DNA from: Alphaproteobacteria bacterium
Lineage (GTDB): Bacteria; Pseudomonadota; Alphaproteobacteria; SP197
Reading direction: 5' to 3'
DNA: 64,000 nucleotides
Assembly (NCBI GenBank): GCA_964291265.2
Contig: OZ219747.1
Coordinates: 3,712,001-3,776,000, forward strand
Positions 47,981 through 63,552 of the stretch are shown here, piece after piece (positions within the stretch are counted from its first letter, which is position 1; each line of letters opens with the position of its first letter). The notes under the pieces were generated by a model that was not told the DNA's origin, made no database searches, and worked only from the letters and a program-made list of their open reading frames with translations. The position numbers were made by a program, and so were the translations under genes.

Positions 47981-49035
47981 GTAAGCGTTCGGCCGTTCGG
48001 TGATGGCTGATTTTGGTTGGTTTGGGTCTTGCTGACTATCGTCTGAGAAAGAGCTGGTAAACTCGTTTGGTCTCGATTATGGTCGAGGCCATGAAGACTT
48101 TTGCCGAGACGCGCGGAGCGACACAGCAGCTGACGGGAGGTGGTGACGGCCTATGTCGGGCGTCAGTGGCCTTGTCATGCGAGGCGCCTGACTGGCGTGC
48201 GCTCTATGAGGCGGAGCGGGTTCGTGCGGATGCGGCGGAAGCGCGTATGCGTGACCTGCGCCGTGCGAAGAATTCTGCCCGTGCCCGTGCGGGCACATTC
48301 AAGTTTCATCTCGACCGCACTCGTGATCAGCTCAAGGAGGCTCGCCGGGAGGTGAAGCGTGGACAGGTCCGAGCGGAGGCGCTGGAGCAGGAAAGGGACG
48401 CTCTGAAGCTCAAGAACGCTGAACAGGCGAGCGAGCTGAGGAATCTCCGCGGGACGCGTGCCAAGCACGCGACGGCGCGCTTCGGGTCGAAGAGCGAGAA
48501 ACGGAAGAAGAAGGAAGGCACCGGGAACAAGCGGGGTCAGCAACCCGGCAAGAGCGGCCACGGGCGCACTCCGCGTCCGAAGCTCAAGGAGAAGCACGAA
48601 CGCCATGATCCACCGGCATCGCAGCGCACGTGCCCGTGTTGCGGCGAGCCCTATGTGGCCAACGGCAGCCACGAGACCTCGATCATGGAGGTCCATGTCA
48701 AGGCTCATATCCGGCGGATTGAACGTGGGCGTTGGCGCCGTGGTTGTCAGTGTTCGTCGGCGCCTGCGGAGATCATCGCGCCGCCACCTTTGCGCTTGCT
48801 TGCGAATACCCCCTTCGGCATCAGTGTCTGGGAATGCGTGCTCTATGAGCGCTTCGCCTGCTTGCGTCCCCTGCGCCGGGTCTCGCGATGGCTGGAAGAC
48901 CAGGGACTGCCGATGGCGCCGGGAACGATCGCTGGCGGCATGAAGAAGATGACGCCGATGTTCGCGCCTCTCGCTCAGGCCATCCTCGATCATCAGAACC
49001 GGCTGACGGTGCGCCACGGCGACGAGACCAGCTGG

Positions 49036-50954
49036 GTCGCGGTAGGGATGCGCATTGCTGCGCACCCCCCGCACAGATCCGGACATGGACGTTAATCCAT
49101 CCGGCTCCTACCTCGGGTGCTTGACGGTAAACCGCTGGTCCGGCCATGGGTGGCGGATGGAGACGCGCGGCCAAAGAAGCTCGGTCATGCGCTCCAATCG
49201 CTTCCAGTCAAAGCAGTGGCGCTGGGAGCGGCGGCGGATCGCTCGCAGCCATAGGCGTTGCAGCCTTTGGCGGAACGTGCGCAGCCATCGGGTCGACCCC
49301 GGAACGGCGAAGTAGTTGGACCAGCCATTGACAACTCGCCCAAGCCACATGCCGACCTCCCATATGTCGTGATGCCGTCGATTGCGAAGCACCTCCTCGA
49401 TGCGCGCCAGGGTCCTTGCGACCCGTTTTGCGACCGGCTTGCGACCAAGCCTGAAGCGTCCTCTCCGGGTCTCCGTGCAGAAGTGCGTGAAGCCCAGGAA
49501 GTCGAACGTCTCCGGCCTGCCCGCCCCGCGAGATCGCCGGTTCGCCTTGGCAAACCGTCCAAACTCAACGAGACGGGTCTTGTCCGGGTGAAGGGTGAGA
49601 CCAAAGCGGTCCAGCCTCTCCCGAACGTCGCGAAGGTATGTCTCCGCATCCCGCTTATGCTGGAACCCGACCACAATATCGTCCGCGTAGCGGACAATGA
49701 TCGCTTTACCGTTCGGAACCTTCGGACGCCATGCCTTGTGAAACCACAGATCGAGCACGTAGTGCAGAAACACGTTCGCCAGGCAGGGGCTGACAATGGC
49801 GCCCTGAGGCGTGCCCGCACCGGTGTCGCTCCATGATCCGTCGGTCATGACGCCAGCGTTCAGCCACTTGCGGATCAGACGGATCACCCGCCTGTCGCCA
49901 ATGCGATGCTCCAGGAACTTGATCAACCAATCCCTCGGGATTGTGTCGAAGTACCCCTGAATGTCCGCGTCGACTATCCAGTTGACCTTGCGCCGCTCGA
50001 TCCCGAACGCCAGGGCGTCGAGAGCGTCATGCGCCCCTCGGCCCGGTCGGAACCCGTAGCTGAAGCCAAGGAACTCCACCTCATAAATCGGTGTCAGGAT
50101 CACATCCACAACCGCCTTCTGGACGATCTTGTCCTCCAGTGCGGCAATCCCGAGCGGTCGTGTCCCGCCGTCCGGCTTGGGTATCTCAACCCGCCGAACC
50201 GGCGGCGCCCGGTACGCTCCCCCACGATGCAGGCGCGAGTGCAGATCAAGCAAGCGCTCGTCCAGACCCTCGCCATACGCCGCCCACGTCACGCCGTCGA
50301 CACCTGCCGAGGCTTCCTTCTTCAAACCGAAGTAGGCCGCCCGGAGCGCGTCCGGCGTAATGTGATGGAAGAGTGCAGTGAGACGCTCCTTCGGGTTCCT
50401 CTCTGCAGCTTCCCGTATCCGGTCCGCCGCCTGTGGCACACTTGCCCGACACTGCGTTCGGTGCGTGCTTTGGCGTCCCGGATTCCCCTTGGTTGAGGCC
50501 CTTTCCTCCAGCGACTCCGCAGAAGCTGACGCTCCCTTGTTCGCCGCCTTCACCGGTCTTACGGCCCCATCCGACTTCTTCAAACCGTTCCTCATAGGCT
50601 TCGGCTTTCTCCTTTCCCTACACGGTCCCGCCACGACAGGCGGGATAGTTCGAAGACCTCCCAGGGTCCCAACAGAAGGCGTGCGGACGTGCATGGGTTC
50701 TCCGACACCGCGGGGCTCGCCGACATCTCACCAAATCGATGCCTGCGATGTTGCCTTCGACCGATGCGAAAGCCTCGGCACCCCGAACAACGGACTTTTC
50801 GGTGCTCATTAGCCCTGCCCATCCGTACCGCTACCGACGCTTCGCCTGCCCCCTCGCGGGAACCGACGCACGGCTCGCGGAGAAACGTGGTTTGGTTACT
50901 CCTTCGTTTCAGGGGACTTTCACCCCCTACCTTCCGCCAGTTCGCCTGGCACAC
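49036..50954 (-). mobile_element. Group II intron (IIB-like, RT-encoding), 1919 nt
   Basis: 5' GUGUGCC, 3' ...CCGCGAC; DV GAGCCGGAUG...CAUGUCCGGAUC. EBS1 CGCAUC (50763-50768) pairs with exon GAUGCG; EBS2 AGUCC (50792-50796) pairs with GGACU. Confidence 0.93.
49108..50595 (-). CDS. ltrA: Group II intron reverse transcriptase/maturase (no endonuclease domain)
   Basis: AGVDG, IPKPDGGTRPLGI, SYGFRPGR, DADIQGYFD, GTPQG, RYADD, FDFLGF; ends after the maturase X domain. Confidence 0.95.
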   Translation of the reverse strand: MRNGLKKSDGAVRPVKAANKGASASAESLEERASTKGNPGRQSTHRTQCRASVPQAADRIREAAERNPKERLTALFHHITPDALRAAYFGLKKEASAGVDGVTWAAYGEGLDERLLDLHSRLHRGGAYRAPPVRRVEIPKPDGGTRPLGIAALEDKIVQKAVVDVILTPIYEVEFLGFSYGFRPGRGAHDALDALAFGIERRKVNWIVDADIQGYFDTIPRDWLIKFLEHRIGDRRVIRLIRKWLNAGVMTDGSWSDTGAGTPQGAIVSPCLANVFLHYVLDLWFHKAWRPKVPNGKAIIVRYADDIVVGFQHKRDAETYLRDVRERLDRFGLTLHPDKTRLVEFGRFAKANRRSRGAGRPETFDFLGFTHFCTETRRGRFRLGRKPVAKRVARTLARIEEVLRNRRHHDIWEVGMWLGRVVNGWSNYFAVPGSTRWLRTFRQRLQRLWLRAIRRRSQRHCFDWKRLERMTELLWPRVSIRHPWPDQRFTVKHPR

Positions 50955-54232: not shown

Positions 54233-55590
<1,358 letters not shown>

Positions 55591-57210
55591 CAGGGCTTTT
55601 CTTTTGTCGTCCCGGCGCTCGGCGCACGCAGGCTGATCTTTGGGGTGGACATCCCGTTTTCGCTGTGGCAGTGTGCCGGCATGACGATGCTTGCGACCCC
55701 GGATTCCCCTATCGACCTTCGCGAGGTGACGGTGCGCCCGACCCGTGGCGCACGTGAGCACCGGCTCTGGGATCGTCTGGTCAAGGAGCATCACTACCTG
55801 CGGTTTCACGGCATCATCGGCAAGGGCCTGCGCCATGTCGCCCTGCACGGCGAGACCTGGGTGGCGCTGGTCGGCTGGCAGCCGGGCTCGTTCAAGCTTG
55901 CTGCACGCGACCGCTGGATCGGCTGGACTGCGGAGCAGCAGTTCCGCCGCCTGCATCTGATCGCGAACAATTCCCGGTTCGTCATTCTTGGCCCGAGAGG
56001 GGTGCCGAACCTGGCGTCCCGCGTGCTCGGCCTGAGCCTTCGGCGGCTGTCCGCCGACATTGAGGCTGCGCACGGATACCCAGTGTTCCTCGCGGAGACG
56101 TTCGTCGACATCAAGCGCTTCGCCGGAACCTGCTATCGCGCGGCGAACTGGCGCTCGCTGGGATTGACGCGCGGCTTCGGTCGCAAGCCCGGCGGCGCCG
56201 CACGCTTCCGTCACCACGGCCAGCCCAAGGAGATCTTCATGTACGAACTGACCGACGATGCCGCCGAGGCGCTGAGCCGGGACGCGATCCCGGAGAGCTG
56301 GAACGCGGAGCAGCACGACCAAGCCGGACCGATGGCCGCGTCCGGGCTGCGCAGTCTGTTCGCCTGCCTGGGCGAGGTGCCCGAGTGCCGCAAGCCCCGG
56401 GGCAAGCGCTATCCGCTGAGAACCATTCTCGCGATCGCCGTCGCAGCCCGGCTCGCCGGCTACCGCGGCGTGAGCGCATTCGCTCAGTTCGCCGCCCTGC
56501 TCACCCAGGAACAGCTGGCGGCGGTGGGTGCGTTCTACAGCCCGTCGAAGAAGCGCTACACGGCGCCCACGTCCACAACCTTCCACAGCATCCTCGCCAA
56601 CCTGCCGCCCGAGACCCTGGACCACGCCATCGGCCTGTGGACGGCCCAGCAGGCCGGTGCAGACACACCGCTCGCCATGGACGGCAAGGACATCCGCGGC
56701 GCCTCCAGGCAGACCAAAAACGGGCGGCGGATGATGGTCGCAGCGGTCGAGCACGGAACCGGCATGGTCCTCGGCCAGGTCGAGGTCGACGCGAAGAGCA
56801 ACGAGATCCCCGCCGTGCGGGACCTCGCCAGCAGCATCGACGTCACGGGCCGCATCGTCACCCTGGACGCGATGCACGCTCAGCACGAGACCGCGCAACG
56901 GCTTCTCGAGCGCCGCGCCGACTATGTCATCACGGCGATCAAGGATAACCAGGAGACCATGCTCGACGACCTCAAGGCCATCGACTTCAAGGGCGCGGCT
57001 TCGTTCGAGACACTCGACAAGGGGCACGGACGCATCGAGCGCCGCCGCTGTGCCGTGGTCGACATCTCCGGCGCCGAGTGGGACGGCTACGCCGCTCTCC
57101 ACGGTCACCACCAAGCCATCCGCATCGAGCGCGAACGCGAGATCTGCAAGACCAAAGAACGCAGTGTCGAGACCACCTGGTGCCTCACCTCGCTCGCTCC
57201 CGAACGCGCC

Positions 57211-58986
57211 GTCGGGTAGGCCACTGGCGCGCGTATCCGTAGGCAGAGGCTTTGTCCGTCACCGCTCTTTCGATTGCGGGCGGGGTCGCAGTTCTCCCAT
57301 AGACCACGTTTCCAGCAGTCGGGTAGGCCGCTGGCGCGCGCATCCGTAGGCAGAGGCTTTGTCCGGCACCGCTCTTTCGATTGCGGGCGGGGTCGCAGAA
57401 CTACCATAGACCACGTTTCCAGCAGCCTCCCTAAAATTCCGTACGTCCGGTTTTCCCGGGTACGGCTTCAAGCATCAGGCACCCACTTGGAGTTCGGTGC
57501 GGAGCCTTCCGCCGAACACGCCATGGTCAAGGCTGACCCGACCATACCCACGGCATCTCCGAGCGTTTGCTCCGTCCTTCGACCTTGCAGTCTGTCGGTC
57601 GGTGCCGGTCTCTGAGTACCGACTTGACCTGCCGCATAAGCCACCTGAGCCCTGAGGTCCTCGCTCAGGACGGGTTGTGTTGTCCCGCCCGTCAACGCTT
57701 ACTCGACCTCATCCGCCAGTCAGGAGGACTCCGCGTCCTTTCCCAGTCCTGGTTATAGACGCGGTCCTTGACATTCAAGGGTCACTTCATCCTGTCTGTC
57801 CTCCTCACCTTCCGGCCTTTCACTGCTGTACTGTCCCGGATTGCCGTCGTCTCTACCACGGGGAACCCGATGCGTGCTCCCCAGTTCTTCCGCATCGACT
57901 CTGGCCACCAAGCTGGGGGCAGGCCCTTGGCGTTCCCAACACCCCACAAGTCAGCTTCATGTGGGAAATTTCATTTTCGAGGCTTCGTACAATCGTTCGC
58001 TTTCGCTACGGCCCTCCGGTTCGCTCGCCGCCCTGGCTGACCAGACCAACTGGACACTGCGTTCCAGCCAGCCCACAGCGGCTTCTACATCCCAGCTCGC
58101 TGGCCCAGGGTCACCCCTGTACCAGTGGGATATGCTACGGCGCCAAACTGGGAATTGCGCCGGCGGGACTTTCACCCGCAAGTACAGCAGCTAGACTCGC
58201 TGCACGCCCCCCTAAAATTCCGTACGTCCGGTTTTCCCGGGTACGGCTTCAAGCATCAGGCACCCACTTGGAGTTCGGTGCGGAGCCTTCCGCCGGACAC
58301 GCCATGGTCAAGGCTGACCCAACCATACCCACGGCATCTCCGAGCGTTTGCTCCGTCCTTCGACCTTGCAGTCTGTCGGTCGGTGCCGGTCTCTGAGTAC
58401 CGACTTGACCTGCCGCATAGGCCACCTGAGCCCTGAGGTCCTCGCTCGGGACGGGTTGTGTTGTCCCGCCCGTCAACGCTTACTCGACCTCATCCGCCAG
58501 TCAGGAGGACTCCGCGTCCTTTCCCAATCCTGGTTATAGACGCGGTCCTTGACATTCAAGGGTCACTTCATCCTGTCTGTCCTCCTCACCTTCCGGCCTT
58601 TCACTGCTGTACTGTCCCGGATTGCCGCCGTCTGTACCCCGGGGAACCCGATGCGTGCTCATCAGTTCTTCCGCATCGACTCTGGCCATCGGGCCGGATC
58701 CACGCCCTTGGCATTCCCGACCACCCCACAAATCAGCTTCGTGTGGGAGCATCATTTCGTGGCTTCATCCAATCGTTCGCTTTCGCTACGGCCCTCCGGT
58801 TTGCTCGCCGCCCTGGCTGACCGAACCGGCTGGGCACTGTGTCCCAGCCAGCCCACAACGGCTTTCTACGTCCCAGCTCGCTGGTCCAAGGTCGCCCCTG
58901 AACCAGTGGGATATGCTACGGCGCCAAACTGACAATTGCGCCGGCGGGACTTTCACCCGTAAGTACAGCAGCTAGACTCGCTGCAC
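57211..58986 (-). mobile_element. ORF-less group II intron A, copy 1 (888 nt: 58986-58206 + 57317-57211), split by intron B
   Basis: 5' GUGCAG; DV AAGCCGUACCCGGGAAAACCGGACGUACGGAAUU; extended DVI ending CCUACCCGAC. EBS1 GGAUCCG, EBS2 GAUGCU. Confidence 0.88.
57318..58205 (-). mobile_element. ORF-less group II intron B, copy 1 (888 nt), nested at the DV-DVI junction of A
   Basis: Complete GUGCAG...DV...CCUACCCGAC unit. EBS1 GCCCCC and EBS2 GAAAUU pair with the flanking intron A sequence. Confidence 0.88.
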
Positions 58987-60762
58987 GTCGGGTAGGCCAC
59001 TGGCGCGCGCATCCGTAGGCAGAGGCTTTGTCCGTCACCGCTCTTTCGATTGCGGGCGGGGTCGCAGTTCTCCCATAGACCACGTTTCCAGCAGTCGGGT
59101 AGGCCGCTGGCGCGCGCATCCGTAGGCAGAGGCTTTGTCCGGCACCGCTCTTTCGATTGCGGGCGGGGTCGCAGAACTACCATAGACCACGTTTCCAGCA
59201 GCCTCCCTAAAATTCCGTACGTCCGGTTTTCCCGGGTACGGCTTCAAGCATCAGGCACCCACTTGGAGTTCGGTGCGGAGCCTTCCGCCGAACACGCCAT
59301 GGTCAAGGCTGACCCGACCATACCCACGGCATCTCCGAGCGTTTGCTCCGTCCTTCGACCTTGCAGTCTGTCGGTCGGTGCCGGTCTCTGAGTACCGACT
59401 TGACCTGCCGCATAAGCCACCTGAGCCCTGAGGTCCTCGCTCAGGACGGGTTGTGTTGTCCCGCCCGTCAACGCTTACTCGACCTCATCCGCCAGTCAGG
59501 AGGACTCCGCGTCCTTTCCCAGTCCTGGTTATAGACGCGGTCCTTGACATTCAAGGGTCACTTCATCCTGTCTGTCCTCCTCACCTTCCGGCCTTTCACT
59601 GCTGTACTGTCCCGGATTGCCGTCGTCTCTACCACGGGGAACCCGATGCGTGCTCCCCAGTTCTTCCGCATCGACTCTGGCCACCAAGCTGGGGGCAGGC
59701 CCTTGGCGTTCCCAACACCCCACAAGTCAGCTTCATGTGGGAAATTTCATTTTCGAGGCTTCGTACAATCGTTCGCTTTCGCTACGGCCCTCCGGTTCGC
59801 TCGCCGCCCTGGCTGACCAGACCAACTGGACACTGCGTTCCAGCCAGCCCACAGCGGCTTCTACATCCCAGCTCGCTGGCCCAGGGTCACCCCTGTACCA
59901 GTGGGATATGCTACGGCGCCAAACTGGGAATTGCGCCGGCGGGACTTTCACCCGCAAGTACAGCAGCTAGACTCGCTGCACGCCCCCCTAAAATTCCGTA
60001 CGTCCGGTTTTCCCGGGTACGGCTTCAAGCATCAGGCACCCACTTGGAGTTCGGTGCGGAGCCTTCCGCCGGACACGCCATGGTCAAGGCTGACCCAACC
60101 ATACCCACGGCATCTCCGAGCGTTTGCTCCGTCCTTCGACCTTGCAGTCTGTCGGTCGGTGCCGGTCTCTGAGTACCGACTTGACCTGCCGCATAGGCCA
60201 CCTGAGCCCTGAGGTCCTCGCTCGGGACGGGTTGTGTTGTCCCGCCCGTCAACGCTTACTCGACCTCATCCGCCAGTCAGGAGGACTCCGCGTCCTTTCC
60301 CAATCCTGGTTATAGACGCGGTCCTTGACATTCAAGGGTCACTTCATCCTGTCTGTCCTCCTCACCTTCCGGCCTTTCACTGCTGTACTGTCCCGGATTG
60401 CCGCCGTCTGTACCCCGGGGAACCCGATGCGTGCTCATCAGTTCTTCCGCATCGACTCTGGCCATCGGGCCGGATCCACGCCCTTGGCATTCCCGACCAC
60501 CCCACAAATCAGCTTCGTGTGGGAGCATCATTTCGTGGCTTCATCCAATCGTTCGCTTTCGCTACGGCCCTCCGGTTTGCTCGCCGCCCTGGCTGACCGA
60601 ACCGGTTGGGCACTGCGTCCCAGCCAGCCCACAACGGCTTTCTACGCCCCAGCTCGCTGGTCCAAGGTCGCCCCTGAACCAGTGGGATATGCTACGGCGC
60701 CAAACTGACAATTGCGCCGGCGGGACTTTCACCCGCAAGTACAGCAGCTAGACTCGCTGCAC
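58987..60762 (-). mobile_element. ORF-less group II intron A, copy 2 (60762-59982 + 59093-58987), split by intron B
   Basis: 1776-bp tandem repeat of 57211-58986 with a few transitions; abuts the transposase 5' exon. Confidence 0.88.
59094..59981 (-). mobile_element. ORF-less group II intron B, copy 2
   Basis: Appears identical to 57318-58205 and uses the same insertion site. Confidence 0.88.
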
Positions 60763-61123
60763 GGACCCGAGATGCTTCTGGCCCTCGTGCGCGACCACTG
60801 GGTCATCGAAAATCGACTCCACTACGTACGCGACTTCACCTACGACGAGGACCGCTGCAGGGTCCATGTGCGCCATCTGCCACGCAACCTCTCCTGCCTG
60901 ACAAACGCCGCCATCGCCATCGTGCGCTGCGGCGGACATTTCGACTATATGCCCGAAGCCAACCGGCACTACGCCGCCCGCGCCCAGGACGCGCTCGACG
61001 CTATCCTCATCCCGCCCGGCGGATGAACCTTCGCTCCTGACCCCGCGCCACAAGCCGGGAACGCGCCGCCTGACGGCGCAACAGGACAGCTCTGTTCGCA
61101 CACTCGAAAAAACGTGCCTAGTA

Positions 61124-63552
61124 CTGCCCTTTAGTCATAAATCGTGCTGGACAAGATGATTCGGATGGTGCACCCTGCCCTGCATGGAAGCACACATTCC
61201 GATCAAACGTGTCCTTGAGGACCAGCTCGATCGCCTGCAGTCGATCGTCACCGAGAGCGGCGATAGTAGTCAAAACCGCCTGGCGCTGGAAGTGTGCCGG
61301 CACTTCGGCCTGCGGGACGCACGGGGACGCGAGCGGGTATCGAGCTGTGTCGTGGCCCTGAAGCAGCTGGCATCGCAGGGCAGGATCGAGGGCTTGCCGG
61401 AGCCCTCCGGTCAGCGGCGTCGGGCAACGCCCCGCCGGCTCGGCGAGGCGGTGGAGAAGCCGCGTGATGTGCCGGCGAGCGTGGCGGCGATCCAGGGTCT
61501 GCGGATCCTGCTGGTGCGCACGGATGCCGAACGGGCGCTCTGGAACGAACTGATGGCGCGGGAGCACTTTCTCGGCGCTCCCATTCTGGCCGGTCATCAG
61601 CTGCGCTATCTGGTGGATTCCGCTCACGGCTGTCTCGGCGGTTTCGGCTTTGCCGCAGCGGCGCTGAAGGTGGCGGATCGGGATGCCTGGATCGGCTGGG
61701 ATGCCGACCGGCGTCGTGCGGAGCGACACCGGGTGCTGTCGATGAGCCGGTTTCTGATCCGGGTGCCGGTTGCGAACCTTGCGTCGAAGACGCTGTCGAT
61801 GTGCCTGTCTCGCCTGGGCGCCGATGTTGCGCAGCGCTACGGGTTCCTGCCATGGCTGGTCGAGACCTATGTCGACCCGACGCGCGACGGTGCGAGCCTG
61901 CGGGCGGCGAACTGGCAGCTCGTGGGGTTCACCCGGGGCCGAGGCCGTCAGGACCGCGCGCGCGAGATGGCCGAGAGCGTCAAGGCCGTGTACATGTACG
62001 TTCTGGACCGGGACTGGCGGCACAAGCTGGGGGTGGCGGAGCCGATGCCGGCCCTGTCCCCGGGGGAGGGTCTGGACGCCTCGGCGTGGGCGCACCACGA
62101 GTTCGGGGGAGCGCCGATCGGCGACCGGCGTCTGAGTGCGCGCCTGGTGGAGATTGCACGAAGACAGGGAGAGAGTCCGATGTCGTCCTACAGCGGTCTG
62201 GCGCGCCCGGATCCTGCCGGTGTCCGGGCCTATTATCGGTTCCTGGATCAGCCGGAGACGTCGGCGGTGACCCCGGCGAACATCCTGGCGCCGCACCGTC
62301 AACGAACGGTGCAGCGGATGTGCGGCCAGCGGGTGGCGTTGTGCATTCAGGACGGGACGGACCTGAACTTCGCGACCCGTCCGGGCTGCGACGGTCTGGG
62401 CATCATCGGCACGAACCAGACGGCCTCGCAGACCCTGGGCCTGCACCTGCACGCCAGCTACGTTGTCAGCGGCGAAGGCCTGCCGCTGGGGGTGGCGCGT
62501 CTTGCCTTCGACGCTCCTCCCCGCCCCCGGGCAAAGACCGGTTCGGGCGAGGATGTCGAGATGTCCCGGCGCAAGTCGCAGCGCTGGCTCGACGGTCTCG
62601 ACGACATCGCGGACCTCGCGGCCCGGACGACCGGGGTGAAGGTCGTGTGCGTGATGGACCGGGAAGCGGACTTCTTCGAACTGTTCGACCGGTGCCGGCA
62701 GCATCGCCGTCTGTCGATGCTGGTGCGGGCTCGACATGACCGGGTTCTCAAGCGCGGGGCTGCGAAGCTGTTCACCCGACTACGTACGTCTGCCTGCCGC
62801 GGCACCATGCAGATCGACATACCCCGCCTGACGGCCCGGCCGAAGTCCTCGGGGCGCAAGAAGCAGCCCGGCCGCACTGCCCGGCGGAACGCGGTGCTGG
62901 AGTTGCGCTGGTTGTCGACCACGCTGCCGGCGACCGCTGGCTGCCCCGATGCCGCGCCCGTGGCCGTGACCGCGCTGCATCTCCTCGAGACGGCCCCGCC
63001 GGCCGGGGAAGCTCCGGTGGAATGGTTCCTGTTGACCGACCTTCCTGTGGACCACGCCGAAGCGGCCCAGGAGATCGTCGGCTGGTACGCGCTGCGCTGG
63101 CGGATCGAATGCTGGTTCCGGGTGCTGAAGTCCGGCTGCCGGGTGGAGCACCTGGCGACGCGCAAGGCCTGCCGCCTGGAACGGCAGATCACCATCCACG
63201 CCGTGATCGCCTGGCGTCTTGCCCTGATGACCCTGCTCGGGCGGGATGTGCCGACGATGAAGCCCGACTGCCTGTTCTCGGACCTGGAACTCCGCTTCCT
63301 CGGCGACTATGCCCGGCGATACCGGCTGGACCCGCCCGACACGCTGGGGGCGGCGGTGAAGCTGGTGGCGATCCTCGGCGGGTATCTGGACCGCAAGCAT
63401 GATCCGGCGCCGGGCAACCAGACGATGTGGCATGGCTATCCGCGACTGGCCACCGCTGCCCTGGCCTATGAATGCCTGCTCGAGGCCCTCGATCTGGATC
63501 CGACGTCGGAAGGACACGATCACGTCCTGCACGATTTGTGACTAATAGGTAG
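61124..63552 (+). mobile_element. IS4-family element with DUF4338-fused transposase
   Basis: IRs CTGCCCTTTAGTCATAAATCGTGC / CTACCTATTAGTCACAAATCGTGC; 8-bp TSD GCCTAGTA at 61116-61123 and 63553-63560. Confidence 0.88.
61184..63541 (+). CDS. DUF4338 (DruA-like) + IS4/Tn5-type transposase
   Basis: RDAWIGW, MSRFLI, VETYVD, RAANW; IQDGTDL, MDREAD, YALRWRIECWFRVLKSG. Paralog of 42057..44396. Confidence 0.88.
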   Translation: MEAHIPIKRVLEDQLDRLQSIVTESGDSSQNRLALEVCRHFGLRDARGRERVSSCVVALKQLASQGRIEGLPEPSGQRRRATPRRLGEAVEKPRDVPASVAAIQGLRILLVRTDAERALWNELMAREHFLGAPILAGHQLRYLVDSAHGCLGGFGFAAAALKVADRDAWIGWDADRRRAERHRVLSMSRFLIRVPVANLASKTLSMCLSRLGADVAQRYGFLPWLVETYVDPTRDGASLRAANWQLVGFTRGRGRQDRAREMAESVKAVYMYVLDRDWRHKLGVAEPMPALSPGEGLDASAWAHHEFGGAPIGDRRLSARLVEIARRQGESPMSSYSGLARPDPAGVRAYYRFLDQPETSAVTPANILAPHRQRTVQRMCGQRVALCIQDGTDLNFATRPGCDGLGIIGTNQTASQTLGLHLHASYVVSGEGLPLGVARLAFDAPPRPRAKTGSGEDVEMSRRKSQRWLDGLDDIADLAARTTGVKVVCVMDREADFFELFDRCRQHRRLSMLVRARHDRVLKRGAAKLFTRLRTSACRGTMQIDIPRLTARPKSSGRKKQPGRTARRNAVLELRWLSTTLPATAGCPDAAPVAVTALHLLETAPPAGEAPVEWFLLTDLPVDHAEAAQEIVGWYALRWRIECWFRVLKSGCRVEHLATRKACRLERQITIHAVIAWRLALMTLLGRDVPTMKPDCLFSDLELRFLGDYARRYRLDPPDTLGAAVKLVAILGGYLDRKHDPAPGNQTMWHGYPRLATAALAYECLLEALDLDPTSEGHDHVLHDL

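Follow-up and report, generated by a model that had tools for sequence, protein, structure and literature searches.

Sibling ORF-less group II introns carry guides matched to their own insertion sites, one nested in the D5/D6 junction of the other

The 64,000-nt stretch of alphaproteobacterial DNA analyzed here (contig OZ219747.1, positions 3,712,001 to 3,776,000; hereafter the window) contains two sibling ORF-less group II introns, A and B, each 888 nt long and on the minus strand, whose exon-binding sequences (EBS) match their own insertion sites. In our reading, B probably retrohomed into each of the dispersed copies of A by means of a borrowed, endonuclease-less reverse transcriptase (RT), and we are fairly confident that the B copies represent separate, guide-directed insertions. 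The intron boundaries, the covariation of guides with flanks, the nesting, the copy numbers and the orientation are demonstrated by direct observation; splicing and retrohoming activity of the family is suggested by the existence of identical copies.

The minus strand from 60762 to 57211 consists of two head-to-tail A::B twintrons, each composed of A up to the start of domain VI (D6; 781 nt), a complete B (888 nt) and the last 107 nt of A's D6. Boundaries were set exactly by comparison with empty alleles, and seven empty copies of the ISAs1-like transposase target occur at ≥97% identity in the source genome (G000). The features of the locus, together with a separate RT-encoding intron in the window, are as follows.

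49035–50954, minus strand: separate RT-encoding group II intron (Rfam RF02005); ORF 49108–50694 with RVT_1 and weak GIIM
55681–57210, plus strand: ISAs1-like transposase, 5' part (Pfam DruA, DDE_Tnp_1_assoc and DDE_Tnp_1), interrupted by antisense introns
57211–57317, minus strand: remainder of A2 domain VI; branch A 57217
57318–58205, minus strand: intron B2, complete, identical to B1; EBS2 57966–57972, EBS1 57914–57920, EBS3 57853
57425–57431, minus strand: B2's own D5/D6 junction, GGGAGGC; mismatch to B2 EBS1 at −4
58206–58211 (IBS1) and 58214–58220 (IBS2), minus strand: B's target within A2
58206–58986, minus strand: intron A2, domains I–V; EBS2 58748–58753, EBS1 58695–58701, EBS3 58634
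58987–59093, minus strand: remainder of A1 domain VI; branch A 58993, 3' end CCTACCCGAC
59094–59981, minus strand: intron B1, complete, 888 nt, in the D5/D6 junction of A1; EBS2 59742–59748, EBS1 59690–59696, EBS3 59629, branch A 59100
59982–60762, minus strand: intron A1, domains I–V and first bases of D6; EBS2 60524–60529, EBS1 60471–60477, EBS3 60410, D5 59990–60026
60763–61026, plus strand: ISAs1-like transposase, 3' part; its minus strand is A's target (IBS1 60763–60769, IBS2 60771–60776)

Base 57210 is the IBS3 (G) and pairs with A's EBS3 (C), and deleting 57211–60762 yields a 623-aa stop-to-stop transposase frame. Because the "exon" of these introns is transposase antisense sequence, splicing would be unable to restore the transposase mRNA. 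The first-pass annotation had A pairing with a transposase exon: A's flank does lie in transposase sequence and the pairing holds, but the strand is antisense to the transposase, and the copy that was cited, A2, follows the 3' end of A1; the transposase flank adjoins A1, which carries the same guides. No public contig bridges the tandem; an assembly artefact is unlikely, since A1 and A2 differ at 5 sites. We found no ORF in A or B, no RT remnant in their D4 (~190 nt), and no endonuclease family in the RT intron at 49035–50954. Elsewhere in the window, a gene at 54234–55600, which from its motifs we take to be type I restriction-modification methylase-like, has an in-frame TAG (55250–55252) and is cut by the ISAs1-like element, and a DruA N-terminal domain is present on two different transposases (55681–57210 and 61184–63541).

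All four introns matched Rfam RF02003 (65–68 bits), and the family RNA may be of class E/F. The RmInt1-like candidate helper intron is, from its C-terminal motif, presumably class D; between the A/B RNA and this intron we detected only 9–14 nt matches and domain z-scores of at most 2.3. D1 and D5 of A were closest to an RT-bearing family represented by L119 (z = 5.3 and 13.6). Exon recognition follows subgroup IIB, with EBS1–IBS1, EBS2–IBS2 and EBS3–IBS3 pairings, and the register of EBS2 varies within the family from −8 to −11. The 5' end is GUGCAG, with A as the fifth base, and the 3' end AC, compared with the group II boundary consensus GUGYG...AY. The A-family D6 resembled that of an RT intron whose protein ends in "FPWAKA" (z = 6.2) in a comparison with RT introns. 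An EBS2a–IBS2a pair is given in the available text of PMC8643678 as a feature of RT-bearing subgroups IIB1 and IIB2. The D5 is atypical, and the Rfam D5/D6 model RF00029 did not match the A/B introns at its gathering score; surveys that use this model (PMC8919778, as far as its available text describes) may therefore undercount such introns.

All four EBS motifs proposed in the first pass were recovered on the minus strand where it had placed them. In A, GGAUCCG pairs with CGGGUCC (7 bp, one G–U) and GAUGCU with AGCAUC; in B, GCCCCC pairs with GGGGGC and GAAAUU with AAUUUU. A consensus fold of 18 family members (RNAalifold) resolved six domains, with many changes on both sides of helices and a bulged A located 7 nt before the end. 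EBS1 falls in a hairpin loop of 9 nt, and the pair that closes this loop covaries (C–G in 10, U–A in 6, A–U in 2); EBS2 falls in a linker that is mostly unpaired. Single-sequence minimum free energy (MFE) folds were no better than those of shuffled sequences (z = −1.2 and −1.1), and the MFE fold of B mispairs the EBS1 loop. The divergence between A and B is, as had been proposed, concentrated in domain I, whose 381 nt contain 46 of the 58 differences, the remaining 507 nt containing 12.

To place these introns in a family, we scanned genome and metagenome collections. An exact D5 pattern returned 54 loci in MAGs labelled Paracoccaceae, Binatia, Thalassobaculaceae, Rhodospirillaceae and other Alphaproteobacteria, although it misses variants such as L090, and a looser pattern gave 96 metagenome loci; 13 of these belong to the family, and most of the others represent a different, RT-bearing family. 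Across the 54 genome and 96 metagenome loci no family member contained an RT ORF, and neither the pattern scans nor BLAST over 5 other carrier genomes yielded an ORF-bearing member; the plasmid collection gave no family match, and viral contigs gave 0 matches to the D5 pattern. Two longer members (L049 and L052), considered as RT bearers, proved to hold an IS, and the weak homologues L241 and L242 are decayed remnants without an RT.

From 73 5' ends we obtained 52 distinct members, 51 of them with a definable EBS1 (it is deleted in M41), representing 20 guide types drawn from the source genome and other bacteria. Across these guide types, EBS1 pairing with the intron's own flank averaged 5.53/6, compared with 2.91 ± 0.26 after permutation, and EBS2 pairing 5.29, compared with 3.31 ± 0.20; permuting at the guide-type level, with the tandem copy and the chimera included, none of 20,000 permutations reached either value. 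A blind scan of 385 domain I windows had its maxima at positions 286 and 234 of A, which are the motifs noted in the first pass, and EBS3 was assigned to position 353, which is Watson-Crick paired in 15/20 guide types (about 6 expected). The motifs are true EBS1 and EBS2 sequences, and natural retargeting, the headline of the first-pass annotation, extends to 20 guide types fitted to their own flanks; EBS–flank complementarity is present in other family copies as well. The annotation's suggestion that both guides were reprogrammed together is not supported. EBS1 is shared and EBS2 differs in the pairs M08/M43 and M14/M31, EBS2 is shared and EBS1 differs in M39/M40, EBS2 pairing is 4/6 or lower in 6 of 50 members (tandem copy M50 and chimera M25 excluded), and the domain I positions at which A and B differ are mostly not in the guides. 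This separate variation and the often loose EBS2 favor stepwise change over joint reprogramming. An excess of G over C in 39/45 flanks was set aside, as these flanks include other elements and duplicates.

The target sites are frequently other introns. For 24 of the 50 members with both ends, alignment of the empty site with another group II intron ran through the junction, the reference introns being taken from the same genomes, and 11/20 guide types target other introns (10 by alignment and that of M17 by inspection). Sites lie in D1, D2, D3 and the RT ORF of RmInt1-like introns, in D1 and D3/D4 of an E-like intron, and in D1 and D5/D6 of siblings; the remaining sites are IS elements or ordinary sequence. 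L031 is a second D5/D6 twintron, whose inner intron groups with its own host (support 100/99) and is ~80% identical to B's clade, whereas B groups with A (100/100). The D5/D6 junction was thus reached twice, unless recombination erased a shared history. We also observed a pair of family members, unlike in their guides and separated by 10 nt, in D1 of one RmInt1-like intron (L050:2776–3700), a member apparently inserted in D6 of an E-like intron (L227:2119), and RmInt1-like introns in direct head-to-tail tandem with a family member in D1 of each (L094; L053/L064).

The source genome contains 7 complete A-type introns, 6 of which hold B, always at GGGGGC/UGCUGG in the D5/D6 junction (slash, insertion point); no B was found in this genome outside A-type introns. 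All six B copies are identical, and their hosts are A or a third variant, A'. The one outer A' copy has the guide set CGUGACU, GACGCU and G, which fits the flank of this copy, where a repeat with 43 spanning matches ends. In the seventh A-type intron, F, an IS interrupts D6 21 nt beyond an intact B site, and an IS transposase element lies in D6 of both B-free family copies (C2:3659399–3661346 and 1767668). A 2844-nt copy of A considered as ORF-bearing was rejected, as its D6 holds an IS transposase, presumably of IS1634, and not an RT. The five A::B copies differ at 13 sites in A and at none in B (binomial p = 0.0002), and B therefore arrived after A had dispersed; the same argument from variable outer and identical inner introns was used for separate insertions in Thermosynechococcus (T.) elongatus in the available part of PMC2882425. 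The idea that B is specialised on A stands insofar as B was found here only inside A-type siblings (6/6), but it must be qualified: B also occupies A', and its guides fit the commonest family junction, GGGGGC/C, better than A's junction, the EBS3 of B (G) forming a wobble with A's +1 U and a perfect fit with that commonest junction. Only 6 unoccupied sites in the source genome fit B's three guides with wobble, 2 of which are family junctions. Among other observations, one twintron (C2:3117383–3119158) lies in sense orientation within a long repeat-rich ORF that has 5 empty copies, and two internally deleted family remnants at C2:3544651 and 3580590 keep their ends or flanks in the manner of miniature elements.

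We next consider which RT could have mobilized these introns. The source genome has 18 RVT_1 matches, 17 of them to one RmInt1-like intron and one to a truncated, unrelated RT, so that the only intact RT type is RmInt1-like (window ORF 49108–50694). The broader RmInt1-like RT clade (99/99 in a tree of 29 RTs) was present in 10/10 other carrier genomes checked, with RT sequences retrieved for 60/164 matches overall and 30/132 in one of the searches. Within the genus, the clade occurred in 6/8 carriers and 1/14 non-carriers (Fisher p = 0.002, a value overstated by kinship and mobile-element load), and the 2/8 carriers without it hold family fragments only; mobile-element load, kinship and assembly quality all confound the co-occurrence, and some genomes may be counted in both the carrier and the genus tally. 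For the source genome, a cross-class helper appears to be the simplest reading, judged from the absence of other intact RTs and from this co-occurrence, and we put the proposition that such a helper mobilizes A and B at slightly short of an even chance. Against such a helper, A's D4 had no detectable likeness to that of the candidate (best z = 2.3) and no ORF remnant, and the L119-type RT-bearing family that A most resembles in D1 and D5 is absent from the source genome. The truncated RT at C2:1339955 was rejected as a cognate helper (RNA z = 0.4 against A); its surroundings (C2:1339361–1340575) show a truncated RT intron in D3 of an RmInt1-like fragment that itself lies inside an ISAs1-like remnant. 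The RmInt1-like intron has at least three target-site families in the source genome and ~14 internally deleted copies (96% identical) with a flank motif of their own.

Alternatively, the family may have been mobilized by its own RT-encoding relative, which was recently lost, resides on an unassembled replicon or was missed, in a T. elongatus-like situation. A related helper is nearly always in the genome for the ORF-less bacterial introns covered in the available text of PMC4424553, an RT-bearing family with similar D1 and D5 exists in metagenomes, and the exact D5 pattern used in the collection scans misses variants. Against this, the source genome is 100% complete in 2 contigs and its identical B copies imply recent mobility, and neither the pattern scans nor BLAST over the 5 other carriers disclosed an ORF-bearing member. 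We consider a cognate RT rather unlikely.

The orientation of the copies bears on how B spread. With origin and terminus placed from GC skew alone (722 kb and 3292 kb), 6/6 B-bearing copies run with the replication fork, in the sense expected of a lagging-strand template, and 2/2 B-free family junctions run against it (Fisher p = 0.036, or 0.048 with the tandem counted once). On the other side of the balance, the A intron at F is itself oriented against the fork. RT introns and their derivatives run with the fork in 26/29 cases, and the empty IS targets are in the disfavored orientation in 7/7 cases by global and 5/7 by local skew. A lagging-strand-template bias is described for RmInt1 (PMC8914252, available part), and the pattern fits fork-primed, endonuclease-less homing as portrayed in the available texts of PMC8914252 and PMC8919778. 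The tandem similarly fits re-homing at the exon/A junction, by analogy with another intron for which tandem homing through EBS3 and the G of the first intron is reported in the available part of PMC12584367.

The same copies might instead be explained if B had homed once and then spread among near-identical A repeats by homologous gene conversion. The 3' halves are homogenized (A' and A are 99% identical in D2–D6 and 92% in D1), A's D6 is identical in 5/6 twintrons with no variable site within 90 nt upstream of B, and recombinant chimeras exist in the family (M25 and one contig in run X4). Moreover, the IS in D6 at both B-free junctions removes the downstream homology and would block gene conversion just as well as an unfavorable orientation would hinder homing. 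However, A alleles 90–140 nt upstream of B are still polymorphic among the B-bearing copies, the shared sequence downstream of B is only 107 nt, and conversion would leave both the first insertion and the second, separate L031 case unexplained; we therefore regard it as unlikely. That A::B moves as a composite, using A's guides and a hybrid D6 (B 5' strand, A 3' strand) with B as passenger, is very improbable, for although B's GGGAGGC–UGCUGG could pair with A's distal D6 strand and several DV/VI repeats give C.te.I1 its alternative 3' splice sites (PMC4424553, available part), the 13 variable sites in A are matched by none in B, B is identical even inside the 4%-diverged A', and a B-free A exists (F).

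Returning to repeated retrohoming of B, we propose that guides would drift stepwise, EBS1 and EBS3 first with EBS2 catching up, until they match a conserved multi-copy target, for example an IS or another intron. B would then retrohome into the D5/D6 junction of A copies already dispersed, the borrowed RT most likely being the endonuclease-less, RmInt1-like enzyme of the source genome, with insertion taking place at the replication fork, in the template of the lagging strand. Before the branch helix of the outer A could form, B would have to be spliced out. In the tandem, a second A would have homed at the exon/A junction with the G of the first intron serving as IBS3.

B's own D5/D6 junction has an A at −4, which gives a C·A mismatch with its EBS1 and a predicted duplex of −10.4 kcal/mol, compared with −13.9 kcal/mol for A's junction. 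B::B is absent among the 6 B copies, and L243, an inner intron that targets D1, mismatches its own site at −6. Self-avoidance of B through a single junction mismatch may be noted as a lead only. As a general rule it was rejected, since the inner intron of L031 pairs equally with its own and its host's junction. One contig in run X4 (depth 8.7) carries a B-type body and a G-type junction followed by the 5' end of B, which could reflect self-insertion or recombination.

More broadly, and tentatively, the family may be a satellite ribozyme lineage without an RT-encoding member, run by an RT of another class, with guides evolved repeatedly against conserved motifs of its helper (domains I–III and ORF) and of siblings (D1 and the branch helix), in which sibling-targeting members would limit self-insertion by one mismatch at their own site. 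Intron RNAs and RTs are thought to co-evolve. For ORF-less introns of bacteria, the helpers published so far come from related introns (PMC4424553, available part). If an unrelated RT does run this lineage, the lineage would resemble SINEs as a non-autonomous retroelement and would offer a direct model for a shared splicing factor; if only retargeting and nesting hold, the family adds one more clean example of a process already known. In either case, 20 natural guide sets on a compact 880-nt scaffold should be useful for studying targeting rules and guide evolution.

Nested introns of Methanosarcina acetivorans reportedly arose by homing into the ORFs of related introns. As in our system, group II introns there home repeatedly and site-specifically into other group II introns, a process offset by recombinational deletion; the available portions of PMC4424553 and PMC2882425 mention neither ribozyme-core targets nor 20 guide sets for it. 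The closest precedent in kind is T. elongatus TeI3/TeI4, for which the available part of PMC2882425 describes sibling families split by EBS, mobile ORF-less copies, some of which target an IS, and identical inner ORF-less introns in diverged outer copies, so that the retargeting headline is already known in kind. By the same account, the T. elongatus inner intron interrupts the RT ORF of D4, closely related introns of the same genome supply the helper RT, ORF remnants are visible and a single genome is involved, whereas here the nested site is the D5/D6 branch-helix junction, no such helper was found, both partners are ORF-less without a D4 remnant, and the family spans several bacterial groups. 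The Trichodesmium T.e.I7/T.e.I8 twintron likewise has an inner intron that breaks a host ribozyme domain (D1) and splices first, but it is a single case of distantly related introns, each with its own protein (PMC4649490, available part). RmInt1-like introns share the lagging-strand-template bias and IS targets but encode their own RT (PMC8914252, available part); they match RF02005, unlike A and B, which match RF02003 and have a long D6, and their clade is related to the family only as candidate helper and frequent target. Our literature search, with subscription papers outside its scope, found no publication that dealt with this family, with targeting of the D5/D6 junction or with mobilization across intron classes. 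What is distinctive here is that no member found has an ORF, that 11/20 guide types target introns, and that the D5/D6 junction is targeted twice, in separate clades. The retargeting is real and rigorously supported and its mechanism is known; an all-ORF-less, intron-seeking lineage is unusual.
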